This document shows positions 3,825 to 29,229 of a DNA stretch of 32,000 nucleotides, piece by piece. Position 1 is the stretch's first letter. Every line of letters starts with the position of its first letter. The translations under genes and the position numbers were made by a program. The notes below the pieces were generated by a model, which ran no database searches, had not been told where the DNA came from, and worked only from the letters and a program-made list of their open reading frames with translations. The DNA is from Nitrosopumilus sp. Lineage in GTDB: Archaea > Thermoproteota > Nitrososphaeria > Nitrososphaerales > Nitrosopumilaceae. Where the stretch lies: positions 1,148,422 through 1,180,421 of the forward strand of contig OZ250170.1 in assembly GCA_965238065.1 (NCBI GenBank), read 5' to 3'.

Positions 3825-3882
3825 TGAAATTATGTAATTGTTTACAGTTTTGAAGTATTACGCACAAGATATGTCAAAACAG

Positions 3883-4050
3883 GCAACTGTCTACAGTTTT
3901 GAAAGCAAGAGTTTAGGTCTCCTGACTAGAACATCTAAAATTCGTGCTCAGCCTAAACTCTTACTTTTAAAGTATTACGCACAAGATATGTCAAAACTGG
4001 TTATTTTTTTGACACAAACACGAAGGAACTTTAAAACTCTAGATAATTAC
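3883..4050 (+). mobile_element. MITE-A copy (inner), itself carrying a MITE-C
   Basis: Complete MITE-A (gcaactgtctacag...aaaactctagataattac) flanked by the 8-bp direct repeat CAAAACAG. Confidence 0.9.
3905..3964. mobile_element. MITE-C copy (60-bp hairpin element) inside the inner MITE-A
   Basis: 13-bp TIR GCAAGAGTTTAGG / CCTAAACTCTTAC. Flanks are TTTTGAAA and TTTTAAAG, each 7/8 to the canonical MITE-A sequence TTTTGAAG. Second copy at 15832-15889. Confidence 0.8.
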
Positions 4051-4194
4051 CAAAACAGGTTATTTTTTCGACACAAACACGAAGGAACTTTAAAACTGTA
4101 AACAGCTACAGAGATTGGGTCTAATTGTAATTACGCAAGATGTCTAATATACAGTCCTTTTAACTTTGAAAAAATTCAAATTCCCCCATTGTTT

Positions 4195-4341
4195 ATGACA
4201 GATAAGATGATTTGTGCCGCATGTGAGACAAGAAAACACTTTGAATGTATTGACTGTATAAATAATCATAAAATTCATCTGTGTTCCTGTGATTGTCATG
4301 ATGAAAATACGGAACCACATCCAGTGGGAAATTCCCACTGA
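4195..4341 (+). CDS. Small Cys/His-rich (probable metal-binding) protein, 48 aa
   Basis: Own translation: MTDKMICAACETRKHFECIDCINNHKIHLCSCDCHDENTEPHPVGNSH* (7 Cys, 6 His, CxxC, CxxC and CxCxC spacing). Below the 60-aa cutoff of the supplied track. Converges on the PAC2 gene with a 2-nt gap. Confidence 0.45.
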   Translation: MTDKMICAACETRKHFECIDCINNHKIHLCSCDCHDENTEPHPVGNSH

Positions 4342-4343
4342 AC

Positions 4344-5024
4344 CTAATTCCGAAAGTCCCTTTCAATATTTTGTGCCAATGCTTCCAGCTGACTTGTGTC
4401 TCCAAACTTTCGGTATGTTAATTTTTCAAGGGTCTTGATTATGCTAATTGCCGCCCTATACTGCGGAATGTCTGGCACGTTTAGTTCCCCGTACATTCCT
4501 ATTCCATGAATTCCATTCTGCTTTGCAAATCCCAGAATTAATCCGTTGAATCCCGTAATTATTGATCTTTGAGGAGTTGTCTCCACATTGAGTCTTTCCA
4601 TCTGTTTTGTGAGTTCCATGGATGTTGTAGTGATGTACGTCTTGGGATTGCCGCCAAAACCTCTGTTAGTGTGAAAGCCGCCAAGCGTATAGATGAATTT
4701 TGCAGAGTATTTTTTTGCAATATCAATCACATCCTGACACAAAGAGTTTATCTCAGTGTTGCCTTGAGGTTGTCCTCGCCCTTCACCAAATATTATCAGG
4801 CCATCAGTATACTTGTACTTCCAACTCTCATCTGGAATCTCAATGTATCCACCTTTGTCAACTATAAATGTAGGATATGGAATACTTGCAATTCTGAATG
4901 TTTTTGCCCTCAGAGAATTGTTTATGAAATTTATCACTATGCTTCCCACATTCCCCATGTCCTGCATTGCTGCAATCACAATCGGTTTTTCCACATTTGG
5001 CTCTTGATTTTGTGTAAATTCCAC
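4344..5024 (-). CDS. PAC2-family proteasome assembly chaperone-like protein
   Basis: 226 aa. The N-terminal IVIAAMQDMGNVGSIV..., FIYTLGGF and GIHGIGMYGE segments resemble the archaeal PAC2/ATP-grasp-like family. Confidence 0.6.
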   Translation of the reverse strand: MEFTQNQEPNVEKPIVIAAMQDMGNVGSIVINFINNSLRAKTFRIASIPYPTFIVDKGGYIEIPDESWKYKYTDGLIIFGEGRGQPQGNTEINSLCQDVIDIAKKYSAKFIYTLGGFHTNRGFGGNPKTYITTTSMELTKQMERLNVETTPQRSIITGFNGLILGFAKQNGIHGIGMYGELNVPDIPQYRAAISIIKTLEKLTYRKFGDTSQLEALAQNIERDFRN

Positions 5025-5089
5025 AATTGTTCTGAGATGCGGTGGATTTTAAACGTATGTTGAAATTGAAAATTTACAAAGAAATTTTT

Positions 5090-5500
5090 TTACGAATAAT
5101 ATTTTTTAAAGCCTTTTTCAGTTGGAACAAGTTTTACTTTGACTCCAAAAGGCCCACTCTTTTTTACTACCTTCATCAATCCTTGTTTTTCCAGGTCCTT
5201 CAAGATGTCTTCGAGTTCCTGATTGTTAATGCCCAGATTTTTTTGAATTTTATTGAAATCCCGGGTACCGGTGTTTAGATCTCCTAAAACTTGCATCTCT
5301 TTGTTTTGCGGCTTTACAAATGACGGGGATTTTTCAAATGATTCCTGTCTTTGATCCGTTCCAGGATTGCTTTGACTGAACTGACTTTGGGTAAACGAGT
5401 CGTTCTTTTTTTTCCATTTCCTAACTAGACGTGGGAGTAGTCTTGCCAGAGGGATCAGGAAGAATATCAGATAAAACCACGAGAAATTTTCATCGACCAT
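5090..5500 (-). CDS. Membrane-anchored winged-helix protein (hypothetical)
   Basis: I prefer the ATG at 5500 (MVDENFSWFYLIFFLIPLARLL...). The 57 upstream codons of the track ORF (to 5671) are encoded by MITE-B at 5567-5648. The C-terminus RDFNKIQKNLGINNQELEDILKDLEKQGLMKVV looks like a wHTH. Confidence 0.6.
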   Translation of the reverse strand: MVDENFSWFYLIFFLIPLARLLPRLVRKWKKKNDSFTQSQFSQSNPGTDQRQESFEKSPSFVKPQNKEMQVLGDLNTGTRDFNKIQKNLGINNQELEDILKDLEKQGLMKVVKKSGPFGVKVKLVPTEKGFKKYYS

Positions 5501-5566
5501 GTCTAAAATGATAGTTAATGACGTATTATTTGTTATTTTATGCTGTAAACAGACATTACTTTGATC

Positions 5567-5648
5567 GTATGAATCAAGCAAAGAGCATGTTTTACGCCTA
5601 TAACGTCCAACTGTTCTAGTGGATTTAGGTGTAGAGGTTGATACATAC
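5567..5648 (+). mobile_element. MITE-B copy
   Basis: gtatgaatcaagcaaag...gaggttgatacatac, flanked by CTTTGATC at 5559-5566 and 5649-5656. Confidence 0.9.
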
Positions 5649-5656
5649 CTTTGATC

Positions 5657-5730
5657 GTATGTGCCAGGCACATGGCAACTAGACCAGATAGAATGTCTAG
5701 ACGTTTAGGCATAAGACATGCTATTCATAC
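5657..5730 (-). mobile_element. Degenerate older MITE-B copy abutting the previous one
   Basis: gtatgtgcc...gacgtttaggcataagacatgctattcatac aligns to the reverse MITE-B consensus with an internal deletion. Flanked by CTTTGATC (5649-5656) and CTTTGAAC (5731-5738). Confidence 0.6.
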
Positions 5731-5879
5731 CTTTGAACCCAGAGATCGCCTCTCAAATTTTTTTCCCAATATGTGGTAATTTTATCATATTTTAACTATT
5801 GCAGATATTAATTCATCATTTAATGATTCAAGAAAACATGAAAGATTCATAAGGCAAAAAGATAATTGACCTACAAATT

Positions 5880-7604: not shown

Positions 7605-8228
7605 CTAAATCCTCAACTTGTCTTTTAGTTTAGATAATTTTTCAACAATAGCATCTTTTTTTGATTGATCTATCTGAGAGTCTTGAATTTCCTTTACAAT
7701 CTCATCTAACAGAGGGAATACCTCAACTTTTGGCTTGATTTTATCAAAATCAGTATTGTCAAATCCCATGGCGTCTGTCTTGTCAATCTCTTCTATCCCT
7801 TCAGGCAAGATCTCGTATACTTTTACTAGTCTGTCTTTTTGTCTTTGTGGTGACATTAGGACAAACTGACTTTTTCTCAATTTTTCCACATCATCTGTCA
7901 GAGTATATTCAGGTGCCCCAAGAATGTCCGATATCTGTTTCATACTATATGACTTTATCTGAAGAAGACGCAGTATTTTTGCCCATGTTGGAATATTGCC
8001 GCTCCAAAGAATTTCCCGGGCAAGAACTGTAATGGAAAAAGAGCCGTCACTGTTTAGCGATATCATTTTCCTGTCTTTTAGTGATGCAAGGGCATCAAGA
8101 ATTCTTCCAACTCCCAATTCCTTCAACTCAGAGTTCTCTAGACTGCTTTCATCAAATGTTCCATTTTTTTTGATTGCCAAAGTCAAAATTTGCAAATCAA
8201 CAGTCCCTAATTTTCTCATATTATACAT
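7605..8228 (-). CDS. Hypothetical protein, possibly tandem winged-helix
   Basis: 207-aa ATG ORF, convergent with the helicase gene and directly abutting it. Segments such as LQILTLAIKKNGTFDES...ILDALASLKDRKMISL look wHTH-like, but only weakly. Confidence 0.55.
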   Translation of the reverse strand: MYNMRKLGTVDLQILTLAIKKNGTFDESSLENSELKELGVGRILDALASLKDRKMISLNSDGSFSITVLAREILWSGNIPTWAKILRLLQIKSYSMKQISDILGAPEYTLTDDVEKLRKSQFVLMSPQRQKDRLVKVYEILPEGIEEIDKTDAMGFDNTDFDKIKPKVEVFPLLDEIVKEIQDSQIDQSKKDAIVEKLSKLKDKLRI

Positions 8229-8945: not shown

Positions 8946-11372
8946 ATGAATAGAAGTCTAAAGTATATTGCGCTTCTTGCAATCATTCCCTTGTTTACTG
9001 CAGGGTTGACAACTGACTATTTCACAGATGCCAATGCAGCCAAAGGTAAAGGTGTTAAAATCTTATCATACGGTTCTGACACTAATATTTGTGGTTTACA
9101 ATTGTGTTCTGAAATTCTAGGTGGCAAGGCCGCATGGATGGAACAGAAAAAGATATCAATTCCTGTGATAGCAGTTATGGATGATACCATGATGGATGAT
9201 ACCATGATGGATGATACCATGATGGATGATACCATGATGGATGATACCATGATGGATGATACCATGATGGATGATACCATGATGGATGATACCATGATGG
9301 ATGATACCATGATGGATGATACCATGATGGATGATACCATGATGGATGATACCATGATGGATGATACCATGATGGATGATACCATGATGGATGATACCAT
9401 GATGGATGATACCATGATGGATGATACCATGATGGATGATACCATGATGGATGATACCATGATGGATGATACCATGATGGATGATACCATGATGGATGAT
9501 ACCATGATGGATGATACCATGATGGATGATACCATGATGGATGATACCATGATGGATGATACCATGATGGATGATACCATGATGGATGATACCATGATGG
9601 ATGATACCATGATGGATGATACCATGATGGATGATACCATGATGGATGATACCATGATGGATGATACCATGATGGATGATACCATGATGGATGATACCAT
9701 GATGGATGATACCATGATGGATGATACCATGATGGATGATACCATGATGGATGATACCATGATGGATGATACCATGATGGATGATACCATGATGGATGAT
9801 ACCATGATGGATGATACCATGATGGATGATACCATGATGGATGATACCATGATGGATGATACCATGATGGATGATACCATGATGGATGATACCATGATGG
9901 ATGATACCATGATGGATGATACCATGATGGATGATACCATGATGGATGATACCATGATGGATGATACCATGATGGATGATACCATGATGGATGATACCAT
10001 GATGGATGATACCATGATGGATGATACCATGATGGATGATACCATGATGGATGATACCATGATGGATGATACCATGATGGATGATACCATGATGGATGAT
10101 ACCATGATGGATGATACCATGATGGATGATACCATGATGGATGATACCATGATGGATGATACCATGATGGATGATACCATGATGGATGATACCATGATGG
10201 ATGATACCATGATGGATGATACCATGATGGATGATACCATGATGGATGATACCATGATGGATGATACCATGATGGATGATACCATGATGGATGATACCAT
10301 GATGGATGATACCATGATGGATGATACCATGATGGATGATACCATGATGGATGATACCATGATGGATGATACCATGATGATGGATGAAACAACAGAGGCA
10401 GACTTGGATTCTGTACTTAGATTATCAAGAGCAAACGTTCCAGCAGTAATTCCACTGCACCAAGGATACTATGACGGCGAAGATGTTTATTTTATCATCA
10501 CTGACTCTAGTGATCCTGCTCATGCAAAAATAATTACAGAGAATCAAGGATGGCAAGTAGAGCTTGCACCCTTGTTAGCAAACGCTCCTGATGAGGCACT
10601 TTCAAAGATATACATATTTACCAACGGTGTTGTTGGCGATGGCATTCATGAATACCAAGGTGAAGTCTTTACAAGCACTCCTGCACAAACAGACACATAC
10701 AGTGCATTGACTTCTCATGTTCATGTTACATGGAATGAAAGTGAAACATCAAGAATACTTGATTCAGATGAAATGATTATGAAAGCAGTCGAGAACGGAG
10801 AAATTACATTAACTAACGTTGATGTAATTTTAAACATGCCACAGATTATTTGGCCTGAGGGTCAGATGATGGTTAAAGAAGACAAAACTTTGACTGATGA
10901 GCAGCCATATGGTGGGGGTCAAGTTCTTGATATAGATACAGAGGAGATGAATGTAACTTTCATCGCTCATCGTGGATGGGGTCCTGATGGTAGAACAATC
11001 TATTACATTGTAACAGATGCTACTCCAAGCGGGCCTGCAGAATTGATGGGTGTTGTAAGTGCACCAACATTATCTAGCTTGATTACAAATTCAGCGGCAG
11101 TTGATCTATTCCAATTCAAAAACGGAATAACAGGCTCTGGCCCATTAGGTTTCCAAGCTGGAATTGCAACCTCGGCACCTAATGATGCCAATTATTCTCC
11201 AATATGGAGAATTTCTGGCATTACATGGGAAAACCCAGATGATGCATCTCTTCTTCAAACATTGCAAGACATTAGCGCATTCCAAAAAGCAGGACTTGTC
11301 AGTACAACATTACTACGTCCAATGGATAGTGATCACATTGTCAACTGTCCATTCATAGATCCATTCCAATAG
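8946..11372 (+). CDS. Secreted repeat protein: signal peptide, (MMDDT)x80 tract, internally duplicated C-terminal domain of unknown function
   Basis: 808-aa ORF. The N-terminus MNRSLKYIALLAIIPLFTAGL...ANA is signal-like. A 1200-nt in-frame repeat follows. The non-repetitive C-terminal ~330 aa has normal-looking composition. Confidence 0.8.
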   Translation: MNRSLKYIALLAIIPLFTAGLTTDYFTDANAAKGKGVKILSYGSDTNICGLQLCSEILGGKAAWMEQKKISIPVIAVMDDTMMDDTMMDDTMMDDTMMDDTMMDDTMMDDTMMDDTMMDDTMMDDTMMDDTMMDDTMMDDTMMDDTMMDDTMMDDTMMDDTMMDDTMMDDTMMDDTMMDDTMMDDTMMDDTMMDDTMMDDTMMDDTMMDDTMMDDTMMDDTMMDDTMMDDTMMDDTMMDDTMMDDTMMDDTMMDDTMMDDTMMDDTMMDDTMMDDTMMDDTMMDDTMMDDTMMDDTMMDDTMMDDTMMDDTMMDDTMMDDTMMDDTMMDDTMMDDTMMDDTMMDDTMMDDTMMDDTMMDDTMMDDTMMDDTMMDDTMMDDTMMDDTMMDDTMMDDTMMDDTMMDDTMMDDTMMDDTMMDDTMMDDTMMDDTMMDDTMMDDTMMDDTMMDDTMMDDTMMDDTMMDDTMMDDTMMDDTMMMDETTEADLDSVLRLSRANVPAVIPLHQGYYDGEDVYFIITDSSDPAHAKIITENQGWQVELAPLLANAPDEALSKIYIFTNGVVGDGIHEYQGEVFTSTPAQTDTYSALTSHVHVTWNESETSRILDSDEMIMKAVENGEITLTNVDVILNMPQIIWPEGQMMVKEDKTLTDEQPYGGGQVLDIDTEEMNVTFIAHRGWGPDGRTIYYIVTDATPSGPAELMGVVSAPTLSSLITNSAAVDLFQFKNGITGSGPLGFQAGIATSAPNDANYSPIWRISGITWENPDDASLLQTLQDISAFQKAGLVSTTLLRPMDSDHIVNCPFIDPFQ
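9177..10376 (+). repeat. Perfect tandem repeat, 80 x 15 bp (ATGGATGATACCATG)
   Basis: Every 60-nt line from 9181 to 10320 is identical. The unit phase starts at 9177 and first deviates at 10377. Confidence 0.95.
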
Positions 11373-11486: not shown

Positions 11487-12788
11487 CAGTTAACCCAGAT
11501 GTGCTCAAAATCAGCTAAAAATGCAAAGATCTATAGGAGGGACGTCTCAAACAGTAATTCGTGCTTAAGCAAACAAACCGTCTGAGACGCGATTTAATTA
11601 ATAATCGTACAGCATATCAACAAATCACATTTTTTCTTGAAAACTACCTGTCATTATACAATACCAGTATCCACCAGATATAATGCAGTGTATACTCTGA
11701 ACAATTTTTTTCAGGGCATGATGCGTGTATCAATTCTTACTACGTCAATCGCCAGATGTGCTTCTTCGTTTCAAAAGTTTGCACAATTGGATAATGACTC
11801 GTGCAGGCAAAGAAATCCAATCGGAGAGTGGTTTCGCAATATGCTCTCCAAAATAAGGATTAGTGACGTTCGTGAATCCTTTGAATCCACACTACGAGAA
11901 CAAATTTCCATGTTTCAACATATCAAATGTCTTTCAAAAAAATGTGATTATATAATTGACATGCATGAAATATCACGATATGATAAGAAACATGCACCAG
12001 ATCTACGACGTGGTAAATACAAAAATGGAACATCGTGGTTTGAGACATATGTCACCATACAATGTGTCAACGGTGGCCTCGCATCTGGTTTTGGCATCAT
12101 TACATGTTCCTGCACTAGAAAATTATGGCAAATTCGTGCGTAAAATTGTAACTATATGCACTGAACTGGATGTAAACATTGGAACCATAATGCTGGATCG
12201 AGTGTTTTTTTTTCAACCAGTGTAATGCAGACCTTGGATGAACTCGGGGTTTAATTTTTGATTCCATGTAAAAACACTACTACTGTTGTTGATGCTCTAA
12301 ATGATTTTGCTGCAGGCAAACGCAAGCGTATCACAATATCTGTAATTACATCTAGTACATCACATCAGAAATTTGAATACACAATGAAAATAACTGAGAG
12401 AAAAAAGATAAAGCGCAACACTGGCAATAAAGAACCAAAAGAAAAGTACATTGGATTTGCAACCAATTCACCTAATGTTAATGTGCGAAAATATGCCAAA
12501 CGATGGGGAATCGAGACAGGATATAGGATGATTGAATCGACAAGGCCTAGAACGCGCAGTACCAACATGGCATCACGTGAATTCTGTTTTCTTTATGCGA
12601 TAATAGTGTTCAATGCGTGGGTGATGGCAAATGCACTGATTTCACGTGGTAGATAGAGAGAGAGATGGAAGGGTAAGATAACAATGACGGACATGAGGAT
12701 TATGATAAACGAATCTGTGATATGGTCGAAACTACCTCCTGAACCACTTCCGAATTGGTCAGGATTGTGAGCACATCTGGGTTAACTG
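11487..12788 (+). mobile_element. IS4/ISH3-type insertion sequence (1302 bp) with an inactivated transposase
   Basis: TIRs CAGTTAACCCAGATGTGCTCA(A/C)AATC at both ends. 5-bp direct repeat ACAAT at 11482-11486 and 12789-12793. Confidence 0.85.
11637..12656 (+). pseudogene. DDE (DDE_Tnp_1 / IS4-ISH3 type) transposase, disrupted
   Basis: Three ORF pieces in frames 3/1/3 (11637-12143, 11956-12225, 12258-12656). They contain IIDMHEISRYDKK...GKYKNGTSWF, LDRVFFFQPV and YAKRWGIETGYRMIES (the Y-x2-R-x3-E signature). Continuity needs 2 frameshifts plus read-through of a TAA near 12255. Confidence 0.75.
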
Positions 12789-12964: not shown

Positions 12965-13064
12965 GTAACTGTTTACAGTTTTAAAGTATTACGCACAAGA
13001 TATGTCAAAACAGGTTATTTTTTTAACACAAACACGATGGGACTTCAAAACTCTAGACAATTAT
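12965..13064 (+). mobile_element. MITE-A copy
   Basis: gtaactgtttacagttttaaagtattacgcacaagatatgtc...acttcaaaactctagacaattat. No matching flanking duplication seen. Confidence 0.85.
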
Positions 13065-13254
13065 CTTCAATCTGTTCTGGAGTGAACATGAGCTTTACAC
13101 TGTTGTAAATTGAACTGCTTAGCCATGTATAAAATTCCGGTTGATCAGATGTAAATGATATTATCCTGTCTTTTGTATCTGGTGTTACCTTCTAATTTTC
13201 CTTGCTTGCATTTTGAAATTTGAGATGGGCTAAAAAACTCAATATAGTTTTCAC

Positions 13255-13337
13255 GTATGAATCAAGCAAAGAACATGTTTTATGCCTGTAACGTCTTGAC
13301 TATTCTAGTAGATTTAGGTGCAGAGGTTGATACATAC
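13255..13337 (+). mobile_element. MITE-B copy, overlapping the 3' end of the ORF 13280-14227
   Basis: gtatgaatcaagcaaagaacatg...gcagaggttgatacatac. No TSD recognisable. Confidence 0.85.
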
Positions 13338-14227
13338 TGTAATTTTAAAATCTCATCTAAAATTGTCCCTGCAAATCTCCTCGCTGGTTTTTGCTTTTTT
13401 AAAATTTCAGTGGCAATCTGCACCAAATAAGGACGTAATAATTTGTCACTAAAACACAGTTTTAGCGTATCATAGTATTCTAGTATCATAGTGTCATTCT
13501 TTTCACAAACTATCTTTTGAACTATCAGAGTTGCCCTATTTACTTTGTCATGTGTCTCAAGTTGAATCATCGCATACTGTAAAAACTCTTGTACAACTTC
13601 TTTGTGTCTTTGTATTATTGATGCAGTTAATCTAAATTTTGAGATATTGCTAAATTTTATCAGTATCTGGGATACTGTATTGTCAAATTTCATATAATAC
13701 TGTTGCATTAATGGTGCCACTTGTAACAGTAAAATTTCATCAAACACGTAGTTTTTTGACAAGTTTCTTTCTATATCAATTACAAGTTCAATTATTACAA
13801 ATACAAATTTCAGAGGATCCAATATTTCAGATTTTTTGTATTCTACAGAGTATTTTGCAAACATCTGGTTTAACATGTTGATTGCATGTGCAGACAACAA
13901 ACTCCTGCTTTTGTCTGCATCCAATGTCTTGATAATTTTAAGAAGAATGGCTGCAAATAACGAATAGTTTTTTGCCGAATATCCGTTATTTCTTAGGCAC
14001 TGACTCTCAAAAATACTTGCAAATTCATCCAAGATTCTTGGAATTTGCTCTGCTTGTTTTATGTTTCTAAAATTGATTATCTTGTCCGGTTTAGAGTTGC
14101 TTTTTACTATAAACAAAGGATTAGCTAGTTTCAATGCACTTTGAATCGATGCTAGTCTGACCCTGTTACCTCTGCTGTATTTGTTTTTTTGTAATGTGTG
14201 AATGGATTGAATCAATGAATCATACAA
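13280..14227 (-). CDS. Hypothetical all-helical protein (orphan) with a MITE-derived C-terminus
   Basis: 315-aa uninterrupted ORF in AT-rich DNA. No motif recognised. The last 18 codons and the stop lie inside MITE-B (YVSTSAPKSTRIVKTLQA*). Confidence 0.5.
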   Translation of the reverse strand: MYDSLIQSIHTLQKNKYSRGNRVRLASIQSALKLANPLFIVKSNSKPDKIINFRNIKQAEQIPRILDEFASIFESQCLRNNGYSAKNYSLFAAILLKIIKTLDADKSRSLLSAHAINMLNQMFAKYSVEYKKSEILDPLKFVFVIIELVIDIERNLSKNYVFDEILLLQVAPLMQQYYMKFDNTVSQILIKFSNISKFRLTASIIQRHKEVVQEFLQYAMIQLETHDKVNRATLIVQKIVCEKNDTMILEYYDTLKLCFSDKLLRPYLVQIATEILKKQKPARRFAGTILDEILKLQYVSTSAPKSTRIVKTLQA

Positions 14228-14323
14228 TAAAGTTTGTTACCTTGCTATCTTCATAAACGTTACATATATGCACAAAAGGTATGTGTCAACCCTTACGCCT
14301 GAATCAACTAGATTAGTTGGATG

Positions 14324-14405
14324 GTATGTATCAACCTCTACGCCTAAATCCACTAAAATAGTTGGACGTTATAGTCGTAAAACATGCTCTTTGCTTGATT
14401 CATAC
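14324..14405 (-). mobile_element. MITE-B copy inserted in the older MITE-B
   Basis: Flanked by GTTGGATG (14316-14323) and GTTGAATG (14406-14413), a 7/8 match. Confidence 0.85.
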
Positions 14406-14438
14406 GTTGAATGTTATAGGCATGAAGCATGTTATTTG

Positions 14439-14538
14439 GTAACTGTCTACAGTTTTGAAGTATTACGCACAAGATATGTCAAAACAGGTTATTTTTTTGA
14501 CACAAGCACAAAGTAACTTCAAAACTCTAGACAATTAC
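14439..14538 (+). mobile_element. MITE-A copy inserted in the older MITE-B
   Basis: Flanked by perfect GTTATTTG at 14431-14438 and 14539-14546. Confidence 0.9.
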
Positions 14539-14553
14539 GTTATTTGTTTAATT

Positions 14554-14635
14554 GTATGAATCAGCAAAGAACGTGTTTTATGCCTATAACGTCTTGACCA
14601 TTCCGACGGATTTGAGTGTAGAGGTTGATACATAC
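14554..14635 (+). mobile_element. MITE-B copy inserted in the older MITE-B
   Basis: Flanked by perfect GTTTAATT at 14546-14553 and 14636-14643. Confidence 0.9.
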
Positions 14636-14958
14636 GTTTAATTCATACCGCAAAAGCATACAGGTTTTCAGTTCATTACTGTTGAAAAATATCCGCACAT
14701 TTGGAGGATCATTCTTTGTAAACCTTGAAAGATTTGCGCTGTGGGTTATGTGCTGTATATGATGTCTTTGTGTGATACGTCTTTGCAGTCTAGATATTTC
14801 TGATGTCTGTTTGGGCGTTAATGTTTTGAGTTTAGAGATTCTCTCATTTTTTGCTTGATTGGCAATTGCCACGTTTGTGATCTAAATGTGATTACTTTTC
14901 CACATGCTGAAATTAGACAAAGTTGTTATTAAAGGAAAAAATTAGTGTCTAGTGACAT

Positions 14959-15267: not shown

Positions 15268-15831
15268 GTATATCCGAGAATGCAAAAATCACGTCCATGA
15301 TATCTTTGCTCTTGATGCCAAGTTTTGTTGCTATATAAAGAACAGATTATTTTGGTGAACTTTGAATAATCATCCTGCTCTCTCATGTTGTGCAAAAATG
15401 CAAACGTTTGTACATGTGATTCCAGATTAAACTTGTTGACTCTTTTGTGCTATACCGTCCACAGTCAAAGATATGCTGTTCTGCACTCAGTTGTTGGTAT
15501 GCACATCATCTCTTGCATATTCATTGAGACTGATTTACTGTATGATGTTCGTACCCCAAAGATTCCAAAGAATGATACACATTATACTCGTCTGTGCTGT
15601 TGTGAGATCCTTTTGATATCACATTACAAACAAGGTCTGCAATGGATGTATACTTTTGAGGTAACCTCAAATATCGTATCACCGCCTCTTTGATGATTGT
15701 ACAGAGTAATCGGGAAATCTCGATCAAACTTGCCACGTTCCGGTGGTGGTTTTACTGCATGTCTTTTTGGCAGTCTTTCTGATGGTATGATGGTATAGTG
15801 ATAGTTTTTTCCTTTCAGTCCACTGTGCATA

Positions 15832-15889
15832 ATAAGTTTAGGTCTCCTGACCAGAACATCTAAAATTCGTGCTCAACCTAAACTCTTAC
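15832..15889. mobile_element. MITE-C copy inside the IS1595 transposase pseudogene
   Basis: ataagtttaggtctcctgaccagaacatctaaaattcgtgctcaacctaaactcttac, flanked by perfect TGTGCATA at 15824-15831 and 15890-15897. Removing it restores EMDELYMHSGLKGK. Confidence 0.85.
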
Positions 15890-16140
15890 TGTGCATATAC
15901 AGTTCATCCATCTCACAATTACCCGATAACATCTTGTCTTTTTATGAATCAGTAATCTTTTGTAAAACTTTGTGAGTCATGTAATAGCACATCTTGTACT
16001 GCACCCACATCTTTTTGCAAATCTCTCTGATTGATATTCCAATACTGGTGAGACAATGCAGGACATCCAGATAAAAAAGAACCGCTGGAATGGGAACATG
16101 TGAGAGTAATGAAAGTCACCGGTCTTGTCGTTGAATGTGC

Positions 16141-16223
16141 GTATGTGTCAACCTCTACGCCTAAATCCACTAGAATGGTCAAGACGCTATAGGCATAAAA
16201 CATGTTCTTTGCTTGATTCATAC
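16141..16223 (-). mobile_element. MITE-B copy inside the IS1595 transposase pseudogene
   Basis: Flanked by perfect GAATGTGC at 16133-16140 and 16224-16231. Removing it restores ...CHSCGSTFNDKTG... Confidence 0.9.
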
Positions 16224-16657
16224 GAATGTGCTGCCGCAGCTGTGACAGAAATATGTCTAAAGATGAATCGCATATTTTCCATATTTTTTTATGTCATTTG
16301 ATTTGCAGTGTGGACATGAAATGTTCCCATTCCATCTTCCATCTTTGAATAGGCTGGCACATGCCTGCCTCGTCAAGTATTATTGCTAGTCCAATGACAT
16401 TCACAAAAACTAATGACTCTACATATTGATTTTTTCGTTTGAAAAACAGTTACAAAGTGAGCAACAAAACTTGGCATTAAGAGCGTATATCTTTAGAAAA
16501 GTAATTTCAAAAAAACACTTTGCCATTCCATATTGACATCAACTGTCTCCATGTCAACTGACACTGTTACTTATATTTACCATAACAAACATGATCCTAA
16601 TACCTGTCTTTAGAATCGCTTAATTTCAAATATCTCTGATTTCTGGAATGAGTATTC

Positions 16658-21768: not shown

Positions 21769-21792
21769 GTAACTGTCTACAGTTTTGAAGTA
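21769..21792 (+). repeat. Solo left terminus of MITE-A (24 bp)
   Basis: gtaactgtctacagttttgaagta, after which similarity ends. Confidence 0.7.
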
Positions 21793-22000
21793 GAATTTCT
21801 CAAATATTCCAAAGTATAATCATGTAAATTCAATCCCCTCATCCGACATGTCTCCTTTATACTCATCAATATCTTGTGAGAATCAGCTCCGACCTTTGAG
21901 CGATGACCGTTTGTGATCTATCTAATTATGGCATTTGGTCGTGTTGCCCTATGCCGTGTTGTTATGGTAATCAGGTCAGTCTGCAAAAACGTAAAGAGCA

Positions 22001-22296
22001 GTAATTGTCTAGAGTTTTGAAGTAATACGCACAAGATATGTCAAAACAGGTTATTTTTTCAACACAAACACGAAGGAACTTCAAAACTGTAGACAATTAC
22101 AAATGAACTGTATCTCCAGTCATACCTAACATGGAATTATTGGCAAATTCTAGCTCTGCAGGAGTATATCGTCTATTTTGACTTTGTAGATTTTTTGTAA
22201 CTGTCTACAGTTTTGAAGTATTATGCACAAGATATGTCAAAACAGGTTATTTTTTTGACACAAACACGAAGGAACTTTAAAACTGTAGACAATTAC
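22001..22296 (+). mobile_element. Composite unit: two full MITE-A copies (22001-22100, 22197-22296) bracketing 96 bp
   Basis: Both copies are complete and in direct orientation. AAAGAGCA occurs immediately outside only the outer ends (21993-22000 and 22297-22304). Confidence 0.8.
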
Positions 22297-22438
22297 AAAG
22301 AGCATCATTCTTTCACGTTTCGATTTTTTTACAAACCTGATGTAGTTCTCTTCGTTGTATTTTTTGGATATCATTGCAGATATTCGTATGAATTAACCTT
22401 CACGCCTAGATCAACAAAATTAAACCAAAAGATCCGAG

Positions 22439-22521
22439 GTATGAATCAAGTAGAGAACATGTTTTATGCCTATAACGTCTTGACCACTCTAGCAGATTTA
22501 GACGTAGAGGTTGATACATAC
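22439..22521 (+). mobile_element. MITE-B copy
   Basis: Flanked by perfect GATCCGAG at 22431-22438 and 22522-22529. Confidence 0.9.
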
Positions 22522-22654
22522 GATCCGAGTAACCTCATCCACCTTCTGATATGAGCAAGACTGACAAAATTGATTCAGAATTAAGACGAGAAAACAAACA
22601 ACTCTGATTATTCATAGATGATCTAATAAAACACAATAAAAGTCTGACAAGATC

Positions 22655-22737
22655 GTATGTATCAACATCTATGCCTAAATCCGCTAGAATAGTCAAGACG
22701 TTATAGACATAAAACATGTTCTTTGCTTGACTCATAC
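22655..22737 (-). mobile_element. MITE-B copy
   Basis: gtatgtatcaacatctatgcctaaatcc...ctttgcttgactcatac. No TSD recognisable. Confidence 0.85.
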
Positions 22738-23041: not shown

Positions 23042-23231
23042 GAATTAATGAAGCAAAGAACATGTTTTATGTAATTGTCTAGAGTTTTGAAGTAATACGC
23101 ACAAGATATGTCAAAACAGGTTATTTTTTTGACACAAACACGAAGGAACTTCAAAACTGTAGACAATTACTGTTTTATGTCTATAACGTCTTGACTATTC
23201 TAGTGGATTTAGGGTAGAAGTTAATACATAC
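23042..23231 (+). mobile_element. MITE-B copy (degenerate left end) interrupted by a MITE-A
   Basis: gaattaatgaagcaaagaacatgttttat | MITE-A | tgttttatgtctataacgtcttgac...gaagttaatacatac. Confidence 0.8.
23071..23170 (+). mobile_element. MITE-A copy inserted in MITE-B
   Basis: Flanked by perfect TGTTTTAT at 23063-23070 and 23171-23178. Confidence 0.9.
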
Positions 23232-23257: not shown

Positions 23258-26200
23258 ATGTCTAAATTGAGAAGTCTACATTTGATCTTCATGTTTCTGA
23301 TATTAGCACTTGGGTCGTTGTATACTATAATGTACCAAAATGTATCTGCAACTGGAGACGAAATCATATCAAACACCATAGAAGTCAATGATCTTACAGC
23401 AGACGCCCTTGTCTTGTCTAATTATGATTACTTTGGACAATCCATTGCAAACATTGGCGACCTGAATGGTGACGGTGTATTAGATATTGCAGTTGGTGCA
23501 TCTGGTGATGATGCTGGTGGTGCTAATAGAGGCGCCATACATGTAATGCTTATGAACAGTGATGGAAGTGTATCAAACACCATAGAAATCAATGATCTTA
23601 CAGCAAACGGCCCTGTCTTGTCTGGTTTTGATTTCTTTGGATCATCCATTGCAAACATTGGCGACCTGAATGGTGACGGTGTATTAGATATTGCAGTTGG
23701 TGGTGCCAACAAAGGCACCATACATGTAATGCTTATGAACAGTAATGGAAGTGTATCAAGTACAATAAAAATCAATAGCAATACAGCAAACGGCCCTGTC
23801 TTGTCTAATTCTGATTTCTTTGGATCATCCATTGCAAACATTGGCGACCTGAATGGTGACGGTGTATTAGATATTGCAGTTGGTGCATCTGGTGATGATG
23901 CTGGTGGTACCGACAAAGGCACCATACATGTAATGCTTATGAACAGTAATGGAAGTGTATCAAACACCATAGAAATCAATGATCTTACAGCAAACGGCCC
24001 TGTCTTGTCTAATTCTGATTCCTTTGGACAATCCATTGCAAACATTGGCGACCTGAATGGTGACGGTGTATTAGATATTGCAGTTGGTGCATCTGGTGAT
24101 GATACTGGGGGTACTAGTAGAGGTGCCATACATGTAATGCTTATGAACAGTAATGGAAGTGTATCAAGTACAATAAAAATCAATAACAATACAGCAAACG
24201 GCCCTGTCTTGTCTGATAATGATTTCTTTGGACAATCCATTGCAAACATTGGCGACCTGAATAATGACGGTGTATTAGATATTGCAGTTGGTGCAACTGA
24301 TGATAATACTGGGAGTACCGACAAAAGTACCATACATGTAATGCTTATGAACAGTAATGGAAGTGTATCAAACACCATAGAAATCAATGATCTTACAGCA
24401 AACGGCCCTGTCTTGTCTGATAATGATTACTTTGGACAATCCATTGCAAACATTGGCGACCTGAATAATGACGGTGTATTAGATATTGTAGTTGGTGCAA
24501 CTGGTGATAATGCTGGGGGTACTCGTAGAGGCGCCATACATGTAATGCTTATGAACAGTGATGGAAGTGTATCAAACACCATAGAAATCAATGATTTTAC
24601 AACAAACGGCCCTGTCTTGTCTAATTTTGATTTCTTTGGATCATCCATTGCAAACATTGGCGACCTGAATAATGACGACATATCATATATTGCAGTTGGT
24701 GCAACTGGTGGTAATAGTAGAGGCGCCATACATGTAATGCTTATGAACAATGATGGAATCGTATCAAACACCATAGAAATCAATGATCTTACAGCAAACG
24801 GCCCTGTCTTGTCTGATAATGATTACTTTGGACAGTCCATTGCAAACATTGGCGACCTGAATAATGACGGTACATTAGATATTGCAGTTGGTGCACCTGG
24901 TGATGATACTGGGGGTAGCAACAAAGGCGCCATACATGTAATGCTTATGAACAGTAATGGAAGTGTATCAAACACCATAGAAATCAATGATCTTACAGCA
25001 AACGGCCCTGTCTTGTCTAATTTTGATTCCTTTGGACGCTCCATTGCAAACATTGGCGACCTGAATGGTGACGACATATTAGATATTGCAGTTGGTGCAC
25101 CTGGTGATGATACTGGTGGTAATAGTAGAGGCGCCATACATGTAATGCTTATGAACAGTGATGGAAGTGTATCGAGTACAATAAAAATCAATAACAATAC
25201 AGCAAACGGCCCTGTCTTGTCTAATTTTGATTTCTTTGGACAATCCATTGCAAACATTGGCGACCTGAATAATGATGGTACATTAGATATTGCTGTTGGT
25301 GCAATTGGTGATGGTCCTGGGGGTACCAACAAAGGTGCCATACATGTAATGCTTATGAACAGTAATGGAAGTGTATCGAGTACAATAAAAATCAATAACA
25401 ATATAACAAACGGCCCTGTCTTGTCTGATAATGATTTCTTTGGACAATCCATTGCAAACATTGGCGACCTGAATAATAACGGTGTATTAGATATTGCAGT
25501 TGGTGCATCTGGTGATGATACTGGGGGTACTAGTAGAGGCGCCATACATGTAATGCTTATGAACAGTAATGGAAGTGTATCAAACACCATAGAAATCAAT
25601 GATCTTACCGCAAACGGCCCTGTCTTGTATAATTATGATTACTTTGGACGCTCCATTGCAAACATTGGCGACCTGAATAATGACGGTGTATTAGATATTA
25701 CAGTTGGTGCATCTGATGATGATGCTGGTGGTACCGACAGAGGTGCCATACATGTACTGTTTATGAACAGTGTTAACACGACTTTGCCAACCATAACTAA
25801 CATCACATCTAATGCAATAACTTCTGGTGTACTCAAGGTAGGCGATACCATATCATTCACATTGACTCTGACTTCAGCTGAGAACGGTGCTACTATTAAT
25901 GGTACTTACAACTCTGTACCATTATCCTGGAACAGTATCAACAACGGAACCACATACACTGCAACATACACCATATCTGAAGGGGATGCGGATCAGACTA
26001 CACCACTTCAAATCACTGGTGTAACAATCACAGATAGTACAGGCAGTACGAGCTTGCCATTTAATGGTACTGACATACTAGATACCATTGATGCAAACTC
26101 TCCCCAATTCTCTAGTGCCCAAACCCTCTCAATTTCACAGATTGCAATCACACTAGACCAGAGTGTTACTGACTCTACTGCCACTCCTAATGACTTTACA

Positions 26201-28864
26201 CTTGGAGGGGTCACTGGCGGTTCAATTAATTCCATAGTGTCTGTCTTGAATGATATAATTACACTTGACATCACTGGTACGACAATCTCTGATAGTGATG
26301 ATGTGACTATATCTTATGCCAGAACGTCTGGATCAATTGATGATGTGTCTGGCAATTCATTGCTAGACTTTGCAAAAGATGTAGCAAACAATCTGGATAC
26401 CACTCCTCCAATGATAACCCTGATTGGTGACAATCCACAGACCATAGAGCAGGGAGCAGGATACACAGAACTAAACGCCACAACTAACGACGGCTCACCA
26501 GTTACCATAAACTCTGCAAATTTCACTGACGCAGTAGGTAATTACACCATCTATTATGATTCAACTGACACAGCAGGCAATACCGCAATCCAGGTCAGCA
26601 GAACTGTAAACGTAGTTACCCCCACTTTACCAACATTCTCATCAGCAGTACTAAATGAGGGAACTGGCATCTTTACAATCACATTTAGCGAGATAATTAA
26701 TGCCTCTGCCATAAACTCTGCTGGATTCTCCATCAGGGATAACAATACCAGTACTGGCGCTATAACACTATCAAATCTGGAACTAACCACAACTGCCAAC
26801 GGTGCAACAATATCATTCAACATGACTATGGCTAATCGTCAGTCCGTAATTGCATTTAACGTCTCAGTGCTGGACATTGGTGCCGGTGCAGTACAGGACA
26901 TTAATGGTAACGCAATTACATTGTCTGCAAACAATACCATCACAACCACTTCTGACAGCATTCCACCAGTCATTTCCCTGATTGGTGACAATCCACAGAC
27001 AATAGAACTTGGTGATGGCTATACAGAATTAAACGCCACAACTAACGACGGCTCTACAATAACCATAAACTCTGCAAATTTCACTGACGCAGTAGGTAAT
27101 TACACTATCTATTATGATTCAACTGATACAGCAGGCAATAACGCAATCCAGGTTAATAGGACTGTAAACGTAGTTGACACCACTCTACCAACACTCTCAT
27201 CAGCAGTACTAAATGAGGGAACTGGCACCTTTACAATCACATTTAGCGAGACAATTAATGCCTCTTCCATAAACTCTGCTGGATTCTCCATCAGGGATAA
27301 CAACAATAACACCAGTACTGGCGCTATAACACTATCAAATCTGGAACTAACCACAACTGCCAACGGTGCAACAATATCGTTCAACATGACTATGGCTAAT
27401 CGTCAGTCCGTAATTGCATTTAACGTCTCAGTGCTGGACATTGGTGCCGGTGCAGTACAAGACATTAATGGTAACGCAATTACATTGTCTGCAAATAATA
27501 CCATTACAACCACTTCTGACAGCATTCCACCAGTCATTTCCCTGATCGGTGACAATCCACAGACAATAGAACTTGGTGATGGCTATACAGAATTAAACGC
27601 CACAACTAACGACGGCTCTACAATAACCATAAACTCTGCAAATTTCACTGACGCAGTAGGCACTTACTATATCTATTATGATTCAACTGATACAGCAGGC
27701 AATAACGCAATCCAGGTTAATAGGACTGTAATTGTATCTGATACCACTCCACCAACATTCTCATCAGCTGCACTAAATGAGGGAACTGGCATCTTTACAA
27801 TCACATTTAGCGAGACAATTAATGCCTCTGCCATAAACTCTGCTGGATTCTCCATCAGGGATAACAACAATAACACCAGTACTGGCGCTATAACACTATC
27901 AAATCTGGAACTAACCACAACTGCCAACGGTGCAACAATATCATTCAACATGACTATGGCTAATCGTCAGTCCGTAATTGCATTTAACGTCTCAGTGCTA
28001 GACATTGGTGCCGGTGCAGTACAGGACATTAATGGTAACGCAATTACATTGTCTGCAAATAATACCATCACAACCACTCTTGATAGCATTCCACCAGTCA
28101 TTTCCCTGATCGGTGACAATCCACAGACCATAGAGCAGGGAGCAGGATACACAGAACTAAACGCCACAACTAACGACGGCTCACCAGTTACCATAAACTC
28201 TGCTGAATTCATGGATGCAGTAGACACATACTATATCTATTATGATTCTGTTGATATATCCGGAAATGTTGCCACTCAGGTTATCAGGACTGTAAACGTA
28301 ACGGATACTATCCCGCCAGCATTCTCATCAGCCGTTCTAAATGTGGAAACAGGTGTCATTACAATCCAATTTAGCGAGACAATCAATGTATCAACCATAA
28401 ATCCCATCGGACTATCAATACGGGATAACAATAGTGGTGCCGTAACACTCTCTGTTTCAGAACTAATCACAACTGCTAATGGTAGAACTATATCATTTAA
28501 CATGTCTCAAACCAAACTTGCATCAGTAACAGCATTCACCATGTCAGTGCTAGACATTGATGCTGCAGCAGTTAGTGATGTCTCTGGAAATAAGATTATC
28601 GTATCTACAGATAACCCCATCAGAGTCACTACTCTTCCGCACTCTCATACACCTTGCCATCTTCCCGGTTCTGGAGACTGGATAATTACAACTAGTTGTA
28701 TGCTTTCTACAAACTATGTGACTCTTGAAAATGTGATTGTACGAAATAACTCTGTCCTGATTATTCTTGATGAGATCACTCTGGATATCGACTTTCTAAA
28801 CAATAACCTCACAATAGAATCTGGAAGCGGGGTTTTGATTGAATCCGGCGGAACAATCACCTGA
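23258..28864 (+). CDS. Giant secreted/surface protein: 12 FG-GAP (integrin-alpha type) repeats, Ig-like domains, 4 tandem DUF5011-like + Ig-like double modules, beta-helix-like tail
   Basis: 1868-aa ORF. Signal-like MSKLRSLHLIFMFLILALGSLYTIMYQNVSA. 12 x FG(Q/S/R)SIANIGDLN(G/N)DGVLDIAVGA. 4 x PP(V/M)I(S/T)LIGDNPQTIE.G.GYTELNATTNDGS..TINS..F.DAVG.Y.IYYDS.D.(A/S)GN. Confidence 0.9.
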   Translation: MSKLRSLHLIFMFLILALGSLYTIMYQNVSATGDEIISNTIEVNDLTADALVLSNYDYFGQSIANIGDLNGDGVLDIAVGASGDDAGGANRGAIHVMLMNSDGSVSNTIEINDLTANGPVLSGFDFFGSSIANIGDLNGDGVLDIAVGGANKGTIHVMLMNSNGSVSSTIKINSNTANGPVLSNSDFFGSSIANIGDLNGDGVLDIAVGASGDDAGGTDKGTIHVMLMNSNGSVSNTIEINDLTANGPVLSNSDSFGQSIANIGDLNGDGVLDIAVGASGDDTGGTSRGAIHVMLMNSNGSVSSTIKINNNTANGPVLSDNDFFGQSIANIGDLNNDGVLDIAVGATDDNTGSTDKSTIHVMLMNSNGSVSNTIEINDLTANGPVLSDNDYFGQSIANIGDLNNDGVLDIVVGATGDNAGGTRRGAIHVMLMNSDGSVSNTIEINDFTTNGPVLSNFDFFGSSIANIGDLNNDDISYIAVGATGGNSRGAIHVMLMNNDGIVSNTIEINDLTANGPVLSDNDYFGQSIANIGDLNNDGTLDIAVGAPGDDTGGSNKGAIHVMLMNSNGSVSNTIEINDLTANGPVLSNFDSFGRSIANIGDLNGDDILDIAVGAPGDDTGGNSRGAIHVMLMNSDGSVSSTIKINNNTANGPVLSNFDFFGQSIANIGDLNNDGTLDIAVGAIGDGPGGTNKGAIHVMLMNSNGSVSSTIKINNNITNGPVLSDNDFFGQSIANIGDLNNNGVLDIAVGASGDDTGGTSRGAIHVMLMNSNGSVSNTIEINDLTANGPVLYNYDYFGRSIANIGDLNNDGVLDITVGASDDDAGGTDRGAIHVLFMNSVNTTLPTITNITSNAITSGVLKVGDTISFTLTLTSAENGATINGTYNSVPLSWNSINNGTTYTATYTISEGDADQTTPLQITGVTITDSTGSTSLPFNGTDILDTIDANSPQFSSAQTLSISQIAITLDQSVTDSTATPNDFTLGGVTGGSINSIVSVLNDIITLDITGTTISDSDDVTISYARTSGSIDDVSGNSLLDFAKDVANNLDTTPPMITLIGDNPQTIEQGAGYTELNATTNDGSPVTINSANFTDAVGNYTIYYDSTDTAGNTAIQVSRTVNVVTPTLPTFSSAVLNEGTGIFTITFSEIINASAINSAGFSIRDNNTSTGAITLSNLELTTTANGATISFNMTMANRQSVIAFNVSVLDIGAGAVQDINGNAITLSANNTITTTSDSIPPVISLIGDNPQTIELGDGYTELNATTNDGSTITINSANFTDAVGNYTIYYDSTDTAGNNAIQVNRTVNVVDTTLPTLSSAVLNEGTGTFTITFSETINASSINSAGFSIRDNNNNTSTGAITLSNLELTTTANGATISFNMTMANRQSVIAFNVSVLDIGAGAVQDINGNAITLSANNTITTTSDSIPPVISLIGDNPQTIELGDGYTELNATTNDGSTITINSANFTDAVGTYYIYYDSTDTAGNNAIQVNRTVIVSDTTPPTFSSAALNEGTGIFTITFSETINASAINSAGFSIRDNNNNTSTGAITLSNLELTTTANGATISFNMTMANRQSVIAFNVSVLDIGAGAVQDINGNAITLSANNTITTTLDSIPPVISLIGDNPQTIEQGAGYTELNATTNDGSPVTINSAEFMDAVDTYYIYYDSVDISGNVATQVIRTVNVTDTIPPAFSSAVLNVETGVITIQFSETINVSTINPIGLSIRDNNSGAVTLSVSELITTANGRTISFNMSQTKLASVTAFTMSVLDIDAAAVSDVSGNKIIVSTDNPIRVTTLPHSHTPCHLPGSGDWIITTSCMLSTNYVTLENVIVRNNSVLIILDEITLDIDFLNNNLTIESGSGVLIESGGTIT
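23365..25770 (+). repeat. 12 tandem coding repeats of ~180-204 bp (FG-GAP units) with high nucleotide identity
   Basis: Recurrent blocks such as ccattgcaaacattggcgacctgaat and catacatgtaatgcttatgaacagt recur with a ~200-bp period. Confidence 0.9.
26400..28640 (+). repeat. 4 tandem coding modules of 558-564 bp; the middle two are almost identical
   Basis: at(t/c)ggtgacaatccacagac starts at 26423, 26981, 27545 and 28109. Confidence 0.9.
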
Positions 28865-28891
28865 TGTTACTAGTCGGTATATTCAGATACT

Positions 28892-28944
28892 GTAACTGTC
28901 TAGAGTTTTGAAGTTCCTTCGTGTTTATGTCAAAAAAATAACCT
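28892..28944 (-). mobile_element. Half MITE-A (reverse orientation), truncated at the MITE-D junction
   Basis: gtaactgtctagagttttgaagttccttcgtgtttatgtcaaaaaaataacct is the reverse complement of the right half of MITE-A. The other half is absent. Confidence 0.8.
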
Positions 28945-29229
28945 AGAGTTTATGCGTAATTGACTAAACCACGTCGACTATTACAACAATACTCAAACAA
29001 AATCATTAGACGTATTGCGTAATTATTCCTAGACGTGGTTTTAGAAGATAATTTTTCGGATTATTCTGAAATTTTGGATTTTTAGGCATAAAATTACACA
29101 AGATATCGAATGTTGAAAAAAATCACACAAATTACGCAAAAGGTCTATTGGCATCATATCAGCTGTGAACAAGTTGATACGTACAAGTTGAATGTTGTTT
29201 CTTATTTTGGTCAATTACGCATAAACTCT
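28945..29229. mobile_element. MITE-D: 285-bp element with perfect 20-bp terminal inverted repeats
   Basis: AGAGTTTATGCGTAATTGAC (28945-28964) and GTCAATTACGCATAAACTCT (29210-29229). No ORF. The interior has four ATTACGCA/TGCGTAAT motifs plus one variant, and a 10-bp stem aaaccacgtc/gacgtggttt. Confidence 0.75.

Follow-up and report, generated by a model that had tools for sequence, protein, structure and literature searches.

MITEs (miniature inverted-repeat transposable elements) of prokaryotes derive from insertion sequences (IS) of the IS630, IS5 and other families; RUP of pneumococcus, the Correia elements of Neisseria and the archaeal MITEs of Sulfolobus are examples. Few microbes on Earth are as abundant as ammonia-oxidising archaea, and little work has been done on their mobile DNA. 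We analyzed a 32,000-nt stretch of DNA from Nitrosopumilus sp. (contig OZ250170.1 of assembly GCA_965238065.1, positions 1,148,422-1,180,421; hereafter the window), which carries several MITE families, three of them probable derivatives of IS66 elements. IS66 elements are flanked by 8-bp direct repeats and bounded by 20-30-bp inverted repeats starting GTAA (PMC11946415). The ISBst12-type element ISDge4, which has a single open reading frame (ORF), has the ends GTAACTGCTCAGCA and an 8-bp repeat (PMC12898284). A Nitrosopumilus metagenome-assembled genome (MAG) with an IS content of 14.95% has been reported (PMC13343696), and in the principal survey of the mobile elements of thaumarchaea, insertion sequences are listed in a text that mentions neither MITEs nor IS66 (PMC6563490). 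An earlier description of IS66-derived MITEs or of thaumarchaeal MITEs was not found in the searchable literature.

MITE-A has the termini of single-ORF IS66 elements

The MITE copies of the window were inventoried by repeat finding and by BLAST with one copy per family. MITE-A is a non-coding element of 100 bp, present in seven full copies and one half copy. Its 23-bp terminal repeat, GTAACTGTCTACAG, starts GTAA, with ends beginning GTAACTGTCTA, and the element folds into a strong hairpin (-18.4 kcal/mol, z=-5.5). With this terminal repeat 185,579 genomes, one per species, were scanned. Among the matches listed, 37 of 38 matched stretches were located in MAGs of Nitrosopumilaceae or other thaumarchaea and one in a bacterial (Puia) MAG; at least 14 inverted pairs were present among them, 13 spaced by 1385-1583 bp and one by 2636 bp.

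The pairs led to elements of 1.39-1.41 kb in Nitrosopumilaceae, whose ends are identical to the 23-bp end of MITE-A in 22-23 of 23 positions. In these full-length elements (1390-1411 bp) a single ORF of 439-446 aa fills the element, and accessory tnpA or tnpB genes are absent. The encoded protein is an IS66 transposase: it matches Pfam DDE_Tnp_IS66 (5.7e-32) and zf-IS66 (2e-7) and scores 217 bits with the NCBIfam equivalog transpos_IS66 (cut-off 180). The sequence GTAACTGTCTAGAGTTTTGAAGT occurs at each end of the full-length elements, a pattern that recurs across approximately 50 loci. A protein search yielded 352 relatives of the transposase, the named ones being IS66 family transposases (Thaumarchaeota, Nitrosotalea, Nitrosopumilaceae, Nitrososphaerales). 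Eighty metagenome loci encoding such relatives were fetched and the element ends extracted; these elements are 1.39-1.6 kb long with 22-24-bp terminal repeats of the form GTA(A/C)..GTTTAG..TTTGAAGT. Perfect 8-bp duplications flank six of the 14 full-length copies in genome loci and were also found in ten further metagenome loci with nine distinct sequences (L040, L047, L054, L058, L059, L068, L092, L113, L060 and L078). The identical ends and the common duplication length suggest that MITE-A is mobilised in trans by an IS66 transposase.

A dead IS66 copy is present in the window

A tblastn search with a full-length IS66 transposase located a match at 21780-22386 on the minus strand, interrupted by a stop codon and a small deletion. 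This remnant carries an insertion consisting of two MITE-A copies separated by 96 bp, for which no matches were found.

21769..22385, minus strand: dead IS66 remnant, comprising the terminal repeat and the last ~100 transposase codons; truncated at 22386 by a degenerate MITE-B.
22001..22296, plus strand: MITE-A/96-bp/MITE-A composite that interrupts the IS66 transposase gene; flanked by the duplicated AAAGAGCA, at 21993-22000 and 22297-22304.

When the composite and one AAAGAGCA were removed, an unbroken blastx alignment of 101 aa with 70% identity was obtained. Since this removal restores the transposase alignment, both MITE-A copies and the cargo between them moved as one unit, a miniature composite transposon. 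In the single-ORF IS66 elements the inner part of the terminal repeat, CAGTTTTGAAGT, is the reverse complement of the final transposase codons, which specify the conserved ..TSKL and the stop. It is conserved, and contains the 7-mer AGTTTTG, because it encodes the conserved C-terminus of the IS66 transposase.

Copies, target duplications and order of nesting

The MITE copies and the elements in which they are nested are given below; coordinates are those of the window.

MITE-A, full copies: 3834-4111 (split), 3883-4050 (split), 12965-13065, 14439-14538, 22001-22100, 22197-22296 and 23071-23170.
MITE-B, starts of copies: 5567, 5657 (divergent), 13255, 14281 (outer), 14324, 14554, 16141, 22386 (degenerate), 22439, 22655 and 23042.
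3834..4111, plus strand: outer copy of MITE-A, split by a nested MITE-A; flanking duplication not visible; the reconstruction aligns over the full length.
3883..4050, plus strand: inner copy of MITE-A, nested in the outer one; flanked by the duplicated CAAAACAG, at 3875-3882 and 4051-4058; split by MITE-C.
3905..3964, plus strand: MITE-C of 60 bp with the terminal repeat GTAAGAGTTTAGG, which has entered the inner MITE-A in its terminal repeat; duplication TTTTGAAA/TTTTAAAG.
5567..5648, plus strand: MITE-B; duplication CTTTGATC.
5657..5729, minus strand: divergent MITE-B-like copy, at the same 8-bp target as the adjoining copy at 5567 (CTTTGATC/CTTTGAAC).
12965..13065, plus strand: MITE-A; duplication not visible.
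13255..13337, plus strand: MITE-B; duplication not visible.
14281..14648, minus strand: old MITE-B with three nested insertions; duplication CACAAAAG/CGCAAAAG; the reconstruction aligns with other MITE-B copies.
14324-14405: MITE-B in the old MITE-B; duplication GTTGGATG/GTTGAATG.
14439-14538: MITE-A in the old MITE-B; duplication GTTATTTG.
14554-14635: MITE-B in the old MITE-B; duplication GTTTAATT.
15308..16486, minus strand: IS1595-like element, decayed and 1022 bp long once the inserts are taken out; terminal repeat GCTCTTGATGCCAAGTTTTGTTGCT; duplication ATATCTTT; holds a MITE-C and a MITE-B.
15832-15889: MITE-C in the IS1595-like element; duplication TGTGCATA.
16141-16223: MITE-B in the IS1595-like element; duplication GAATGTGC.
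22386..22540, minus strand: degenerate MITE-B remnant, holding an intact MITE-B at 22439-22521 with duplication GATCCGAG.
22655..22737, minus strand: MITE-B; duplication not visible.
23042..23231, plus strand: MITE-B with a degenerate left end and no visible duplication, holding the MITE-A at 23071-23170 with duplication TGTTTTAT.
28892..28944, minus strand: half copy of MITE-A, broken where it meets MITE-D.

MITE-B, the most abundant family here, is 83 bp long and MITE-C 58-60 bp. For MITE-A, 8-bp duplications were seen in four single-copy cases and at the composite; for MITE-B, perfect 8-bp repeats were found six times. Overall, the MITE events have left nine perfect and four near-perfect pairs of duplications, and the chance of a perfect 8-bp match at fixed junctions is ~1.5e-5 per element. 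Excision of each nested insert together with one copy of its duplication restored full-length MITE-A or MITE-B, in register with uninterrupted copies, with up to three inserts having entered one 83-bp element. Because the reconstruction restores the host elements so precisely, the insertions are true transposition events, far beyond chance.

These data agree in large part with an earlier note on the same DNA, which had listed twelve 8-bp direct repeats: all twelve are located exactly at the junctions given there, and the pair CACAAAAG/CGCAAAAG around the MITE-B at 14281-14648 is a thirteenth. Its count of at least ten MITE-B copies is confirmed, with 11 copies or remnants, as are the two copies of MITE-C (3905-3964 and 15832-15889) and its statement that every transposase in the window is dead, all transposase genes being broken. 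The seven full copies of MITE-A likewise stand, and of the two fragments added to them the half copy at 28892-28944 was retained, while what had been taken for a fragment at 21769 is a terminal repeat belonging to the dead IS66 element. The generalisation that all four MITE families make 8-bp duplications fails for MITE-D, which is described below.

Assignment of MITE-C and MITE-B

The terminus of MITE-C, GTAAGAGTTTAGG, agrees with GTAAGAGTTTAGC of the IS66 locus L053 in 12 of 13 positions, and the same score (12/13) was obtained with L051. Judged by this end match and by its 8-bp duplications, with only two copies to go on, MITE-C is classed as an IS66-type MITE of another subtype.

MITE-B is probably an IS66 derivative as well, and here a rival assignment has to be weighed, namely that MITE-B depends on a different, so far unseen transposase family which also makes 8-bp duplications, and that it shares only its habitat with the other MITEs. 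The ends of MITE-B, GTATGAATCAAG and GTATGTATCAAC, start GTAT and do not fit the pattern GTTTAG..TGAAGT of thaumarchaeal IS66 elements. They match each other over ~11 bp only, folding of the element is weak (z about -1), and the failure to find a partner (see below) points the same way. Against this, the GTA at the start is that of IS66 elements, and a divergent IS66 clade has the ends GTATCTATTAAG together with an 8-bp duplication (L092). Moreover, MITE-B has the same duplication length and nesting behaviour as MITE-A, and a MITE-B-like insertion appears to be present in an IS66 gene elsewhere in the host (P0256). We regard a separate transposase family for MITE-B as the less likely alternative.

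Putting the three families together, we estimate at about 0.8 the probability that MITE-A, MITE-C and, probably, MITE-B are non-autonomous derivatives of single-ORF (ISBst12-type) IS66 elements in Nitrosopumilus. Several observations weigh against this derivation. Duplications were absent from eight of the 14 full-length copies in the first set. Beyond the terminal repeat the interior of MITE-A is only weakly similar to the IS (39 bp at 85%), and MITE-A is for this reason not a simple internal deletion of the sampled elements. When the 118 fetched loci were searched by BLAST, no 100-bp MITE-A copies and no copies of MITE-B or MITE-C were found. The ends of MITE-B agree with the nearest IS66 sequence, GTATCTATTAAG of the divergent clade (L087, L088 and L092), in 9 of 12 positions, and a full-length partner of MITE-B was found neither in the 118 loci by BLAST nor by scanning the viral collection with the MITE-B end.

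Nesting: accumulation in dispensable DNA or choice of target

The earlier note had also proposed that the elements preferentially land in each other. The nesting itself is real, as the reconstructions demonstrate. In the window, 11 of 14 duplication-verified insertions are in, or at the edge of, another element, against an expectation of 59% (P=0.12). This expectation is the share of mobile DNA in dispensable sequence, mobile DNA amounting to ~5.1 kb and other non-coding DNA to ~3.5 kb. Neutral accumulation in dispensable DNA fits these figures and is enough to explain the overall nesting bias.

It is possible, but in our judgement unlikely, that the transposase truly prefers certain targets, be they particular 8-mers or MITE or hairpin DNA, and that the nesting of element in element is not due solely to the survival of insertions at harmless sites. 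Within mobile DNA, eight of the 11 nested insertions are in MITE-A or MITE-B against 28% expected (P=0.002), and three insertions have entered one 83-bp MITE-B within a spacer of ~445 bp, for which (83/445)^3 = 0.006. The target CTTTGATC has been used twice in tandem, and two independent, oppositely oriented MITE-A insertions are located at (T/C)GCTCTTT in two IS66 copies, that of the window and that of P0250; such repeated use of a target hints at a real preference. Against a preference stands the overall figure of P=0.12, and these tests are post hoc, involve small numbers and ignore the age of the elements. The 13 MITE-event duplications and those of the full-length copies have no clear consensus, and an unrelated TA-type MITE is also nested (in MITE-D), as neutral accumulation predicts.

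In a stronger form of the proposal, which we consider unlikely, IS66-type MITEs might actively seek out other MITEs and the IS they derive from, by way of specific 8-mers or of DNA prone to form hairpins, and might strike the same sites again and again, the helper gene included. If true, the family would silence its own helper and collect in safe havens of its own making within a compact genome, which would amount to a built-in self-limiting mechanism and not simply to what selection has left behind.

The IS1595-like element is not the source of the MITEs

The earlier note inferred that all four MITE families are moved by an IS1595-type transposase whose gene is located elsewhere. IS1595 elements do make 8-bp duplications, and the IS1595-like element of the window has ATATCTTT on both sides; this length never discriminated between the two families, because it is equally typical of IS66. 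In a stop-bridged reconstruction of the element at 15308-16486, Zn_ribbon_IS1595 and DDE_Tnp_IS1595 remained below the Pfam curated cut-offs, and a 39-aa fragment of it just reaches the zinc-ribbon cut-off (25.5 vs 25.4 bits).

The best ungapped match of GCTCTTGATGCCAAGTTTTGTTGCT to the MITE-A end is 10/23, and it includes the 7-mer AGTTTTG, which is common to both ends at a similar offset. The 7-mer had been offered as weak support for a shared binding site. It sits in the stretch encoding the conserved C-terminus of the IS66 transposase and is explained by those codons. The IS1595-like terminal repeat starts GCTCTT and not GTA, and thus differs from the MITE ends, which begin GTAACTGTCTA or GTATGAATCAA; no match to GCTCTTGATGCCAAGTTTTGTTGCT was found for the ends of MITE-B and MITE-C. 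The ends of MITE-A are those of single-ORF IS66 elements (22-23/23), and MITE-D has no 8-bp duplication at all. The mismatch of the terminal repeats, together with the identity of MITE-A and IS66 ends, speaks against an IS1595 origin of the MITEs, and we hold an IS1595-type helper to be very improbable. The more general claim that the MITEs are mobilised in trans is right in principle, as the window encodes no usable transposase.

It is hardly conceivable that the repeats are not transposons but structured repeats (REP-like elements or small RNA genes) spread by recombination, as the strong hairpin of MITE-A might suggest, given thirteen MITE junction pairs with 8-bp duplications, interrupted hosts precisely restored on removal of the insert, and MITE-A ends identical to those of a transposase-encoding element.

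MITEs have entered IS66 genes elsewhere in the host genome

A remnant-peptide search listed 11 IS66 fragment proteins from the 2.39-Mb host contig, all of 57-166 aa. Among the 120 best full-length relatives, out of 352 relatives in all, there was no intact cognate transposase from the host contig; an intact host copy would be expected to rank near the top, since the fragment P0242 shares 80% identity with the transposase used as query. The fragment P0253 reads through a MITE-A flanked by duplicated RKI (33 + 3 residues = 100 + 8 bp). In P0250, a MITE-A is present in a different IS66 copy, in opposite orientation and at the same site as the composite of the window, and P0256 appears to continue into a MITE-B-like translation. 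The insertions in P0250, P0253 and P0256 indicate, therefore, that the MITEs repeatedly struck their own helper gene. A further fragment, P0257, is fused to an apparent IS110-type transposase fragment (judged by eye).

The two copies of the duplications differ at 5 of 112 positions, and mean identity is 92% for MITE-A and 85% for MITE-B. Such values lend little weight to the recent activity that had been deduced from mostly perfect duplications. We infer that the burst was not very recent and may be over, as far as gene calling and database coverage, which limit this view, allow.

MITE-D, TA-type and ISH3-family elements

Other mobile elements of the window are as follows.

28945..29229, no strand assigned: MITE-D, with the 20-bp terminal repeat AGAGTTTATGCGTAATTGAC; without 8-bp duplication; contains the MITE at 29009-29145.
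11487..12788, plus strand: ISH3-family IS of 1302 bp, frameshifted; terminal repeat CAGTTAACCCAGATGTGCTCACAATC; 5-bp duplication ACAAT; outside the 8-bp system.
29648..29996, no strand assigned: MITE of 349 bp derived from the ISH3-family IS; 5-bp duplication TATCT; a fifth MITE type.

The junctions of MITE-D have no 8-bp duplication, the flanks being AATAACCT and TCTACATT. Its ends read (TA)GAGTTTATGCGTAATTGAC, with TA preceding on the left, and resemble a TA-type terminal repeat in 12 of 18 positions. In a Nitrosopumilus MAG this TA-type repeat bounds 138-bp MITEs and elements of 1069-1073 bp, all of them TA-flanked (loci L016, at 4200-5268, L025, L029, L001, L004 and L010). The full-length TA-type element of L016 is IS5/Harbinger-like, its ORFs matching HTH_Tnp_4 and DDE_Tnp_4. 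Inside MITE-D a 137-bp MITE was delimited at 29009-29145, with TA on both sides, by alignment with weak matches in the Nitrosopumilus MAG. MITE-D is probably a TA-duplicating, IS5-type element. A link of MITE-D to MITE-C through the common AGAGTTTA was considered and dropped after the TA-flanked relatives and the MITE nested in MITE-D had been found.

A solo TA-type end at 4127-4144 adjoins the MITE-A stack, which ends at 4111, and a solo end of the ISH3-family IS is present at 481-543. By eye, the motif ATTACGCA(C)AAGA recurs in the interior of MITE-A (e.g. 14462-14480), in the ends of TA-type MITEs and in MITE-D. The core of MITE-A might be derived from a TA-type MITE captured between IS66 ends.

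The host and other features of the window

The genes of the window are archaeal: PAC2, CofH/MqnC, a thiamine-binding protein, superoxide dismutase, EF-2 and a DUF7482 protein were recognised. For the EF-2 fragment, identity is 100% to a protein encoded on a contig of 2,387,848 bp and 95% to Nitrosopumilus sp. proteins, the closest relatives (P0122-P0124) having 95-96%, and the CofH gene has 80% DNA identity to a Nitrosopumilus MAG. These matches identify the host as an ammonia-oxidising archaeon of the Nitrosopumilus type, whose genome is large for the group (2.39-Mb contig). Streptococcus and Methanosarcinales, which GC content and repeats had suggested, were discarded as hosts in view of the EF-2 matches and of the genome scan, in which nearly all matches were in Nitrosopumilaceae.

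Four minus-strand ORFs (2590-3867, 5090-5671, 13280-14227 and 14561-14872) run into MITEs, with apparent starts inside MITE-A or MITE-B. The start codons or promoters of these neighbours may come from MITE sequence or be displaced by it; alternatively, these ORF ends may be spurious.

Two further genes have repeats of their own. The ORF at 8946-11372, which encodes a secreted DUF7482 protein, contains at 9177-10379 a tandem array of the 15-bp unit ATGGATGATACCATG, 80.2 copies without a single difference, translated as (MDDTM)x80; given this 100% identity the array is either very young, or homogenised, or an assembly artefact. The ORF at 23258-28864 encodes a surface-type protein of 1868 aa with 11 FG-GAP repeats, which have a period of 204 bp in the DNA, and after them four Ig-like domains with a period of 564 bp; its DNA repeats (families D2-D9) are 66-100% identical to the reference copy.

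Discussion

The findings can be accommodated in the following scheme. An IS66 transposase of ~440 aa, with a zinc finger and a DDE domain, would recognise terminal repeats of ~23 bp starting GTAA or GTAT and insert the element by an 8-bp staggered cut, the repair of which would leave the 8-bp duplication. The MITEs would have kept the terminal repeats only, and would hence depend on transposase supplied by full-length copies elsewhere in the genome. Insertions would have accumulated in the little DNA that a compact genome can spare, which for the most part consists of earlier mobile elements, IS66 transposase genes among them, the outcome being layered stacks of element in element and broken helper genes.

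In this scheme single-ORF IS66 elements would have given rise to MITE families in a lineage of Nitrosopumilus whose genome is unusually large and laden with repeats, and these MITEs have repeatedly disrupted the transposase genes on which they appear to depend. No new kind of system is revealed here and the practical value is modest: a corrected family assignment, a terminal-repeat consensus for annotation and a small natural data set on IS66 targeting, in a family whose target choice is poorly understood.

Compared with known systems, the closest likeness is to the ISBst12 group (ISBst12, ISDge4). The elements have in common one transposase of ~440-450 aa with the IS66 DDE domain and a zinc finger, no tnpA/tnpB, terminal repeats of ~23 bp starting GTAA (GTAACTGCTCAGCA in ISDge4, GTAACTGTCTACAG in MITE-A) and 8-bp duplications. 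They differ in that the host here is thaumarchaeal, that the family is seen mainly as MITEs of 58-100 bp and broken copies, and that the final codons of the transposase gene and the terminal repeat overlap. With the IS1595 family the likeness is confined to the 8-bp duplication and the one decayed copy at 15308-16486, the terminal repeat of which is unrelated to the MITEs; here it is a target of MITEs and not their source. The genome as a whole resembles those of IS-rich symbionts, the Nitrosopumilus MAG with 14.95% IS and the Cenarchaeum symbiont of Oopsacas minuta, in being large for its genus, in its many IS families and in mass pseudogenisation; a related transposase fragment, P0246, is annotated in a sponge symbiont. 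Like other prokaryotic MITEs, those described here are short, non-coding, hairpin-forming elements in many copies, apparently mobilised in trans, with terminal repeats copied from an autonomous IS and family-specific duplications; they are set apart by a probable IS66 parent with 8-bp duplications and by an unusually high degree of nesting.

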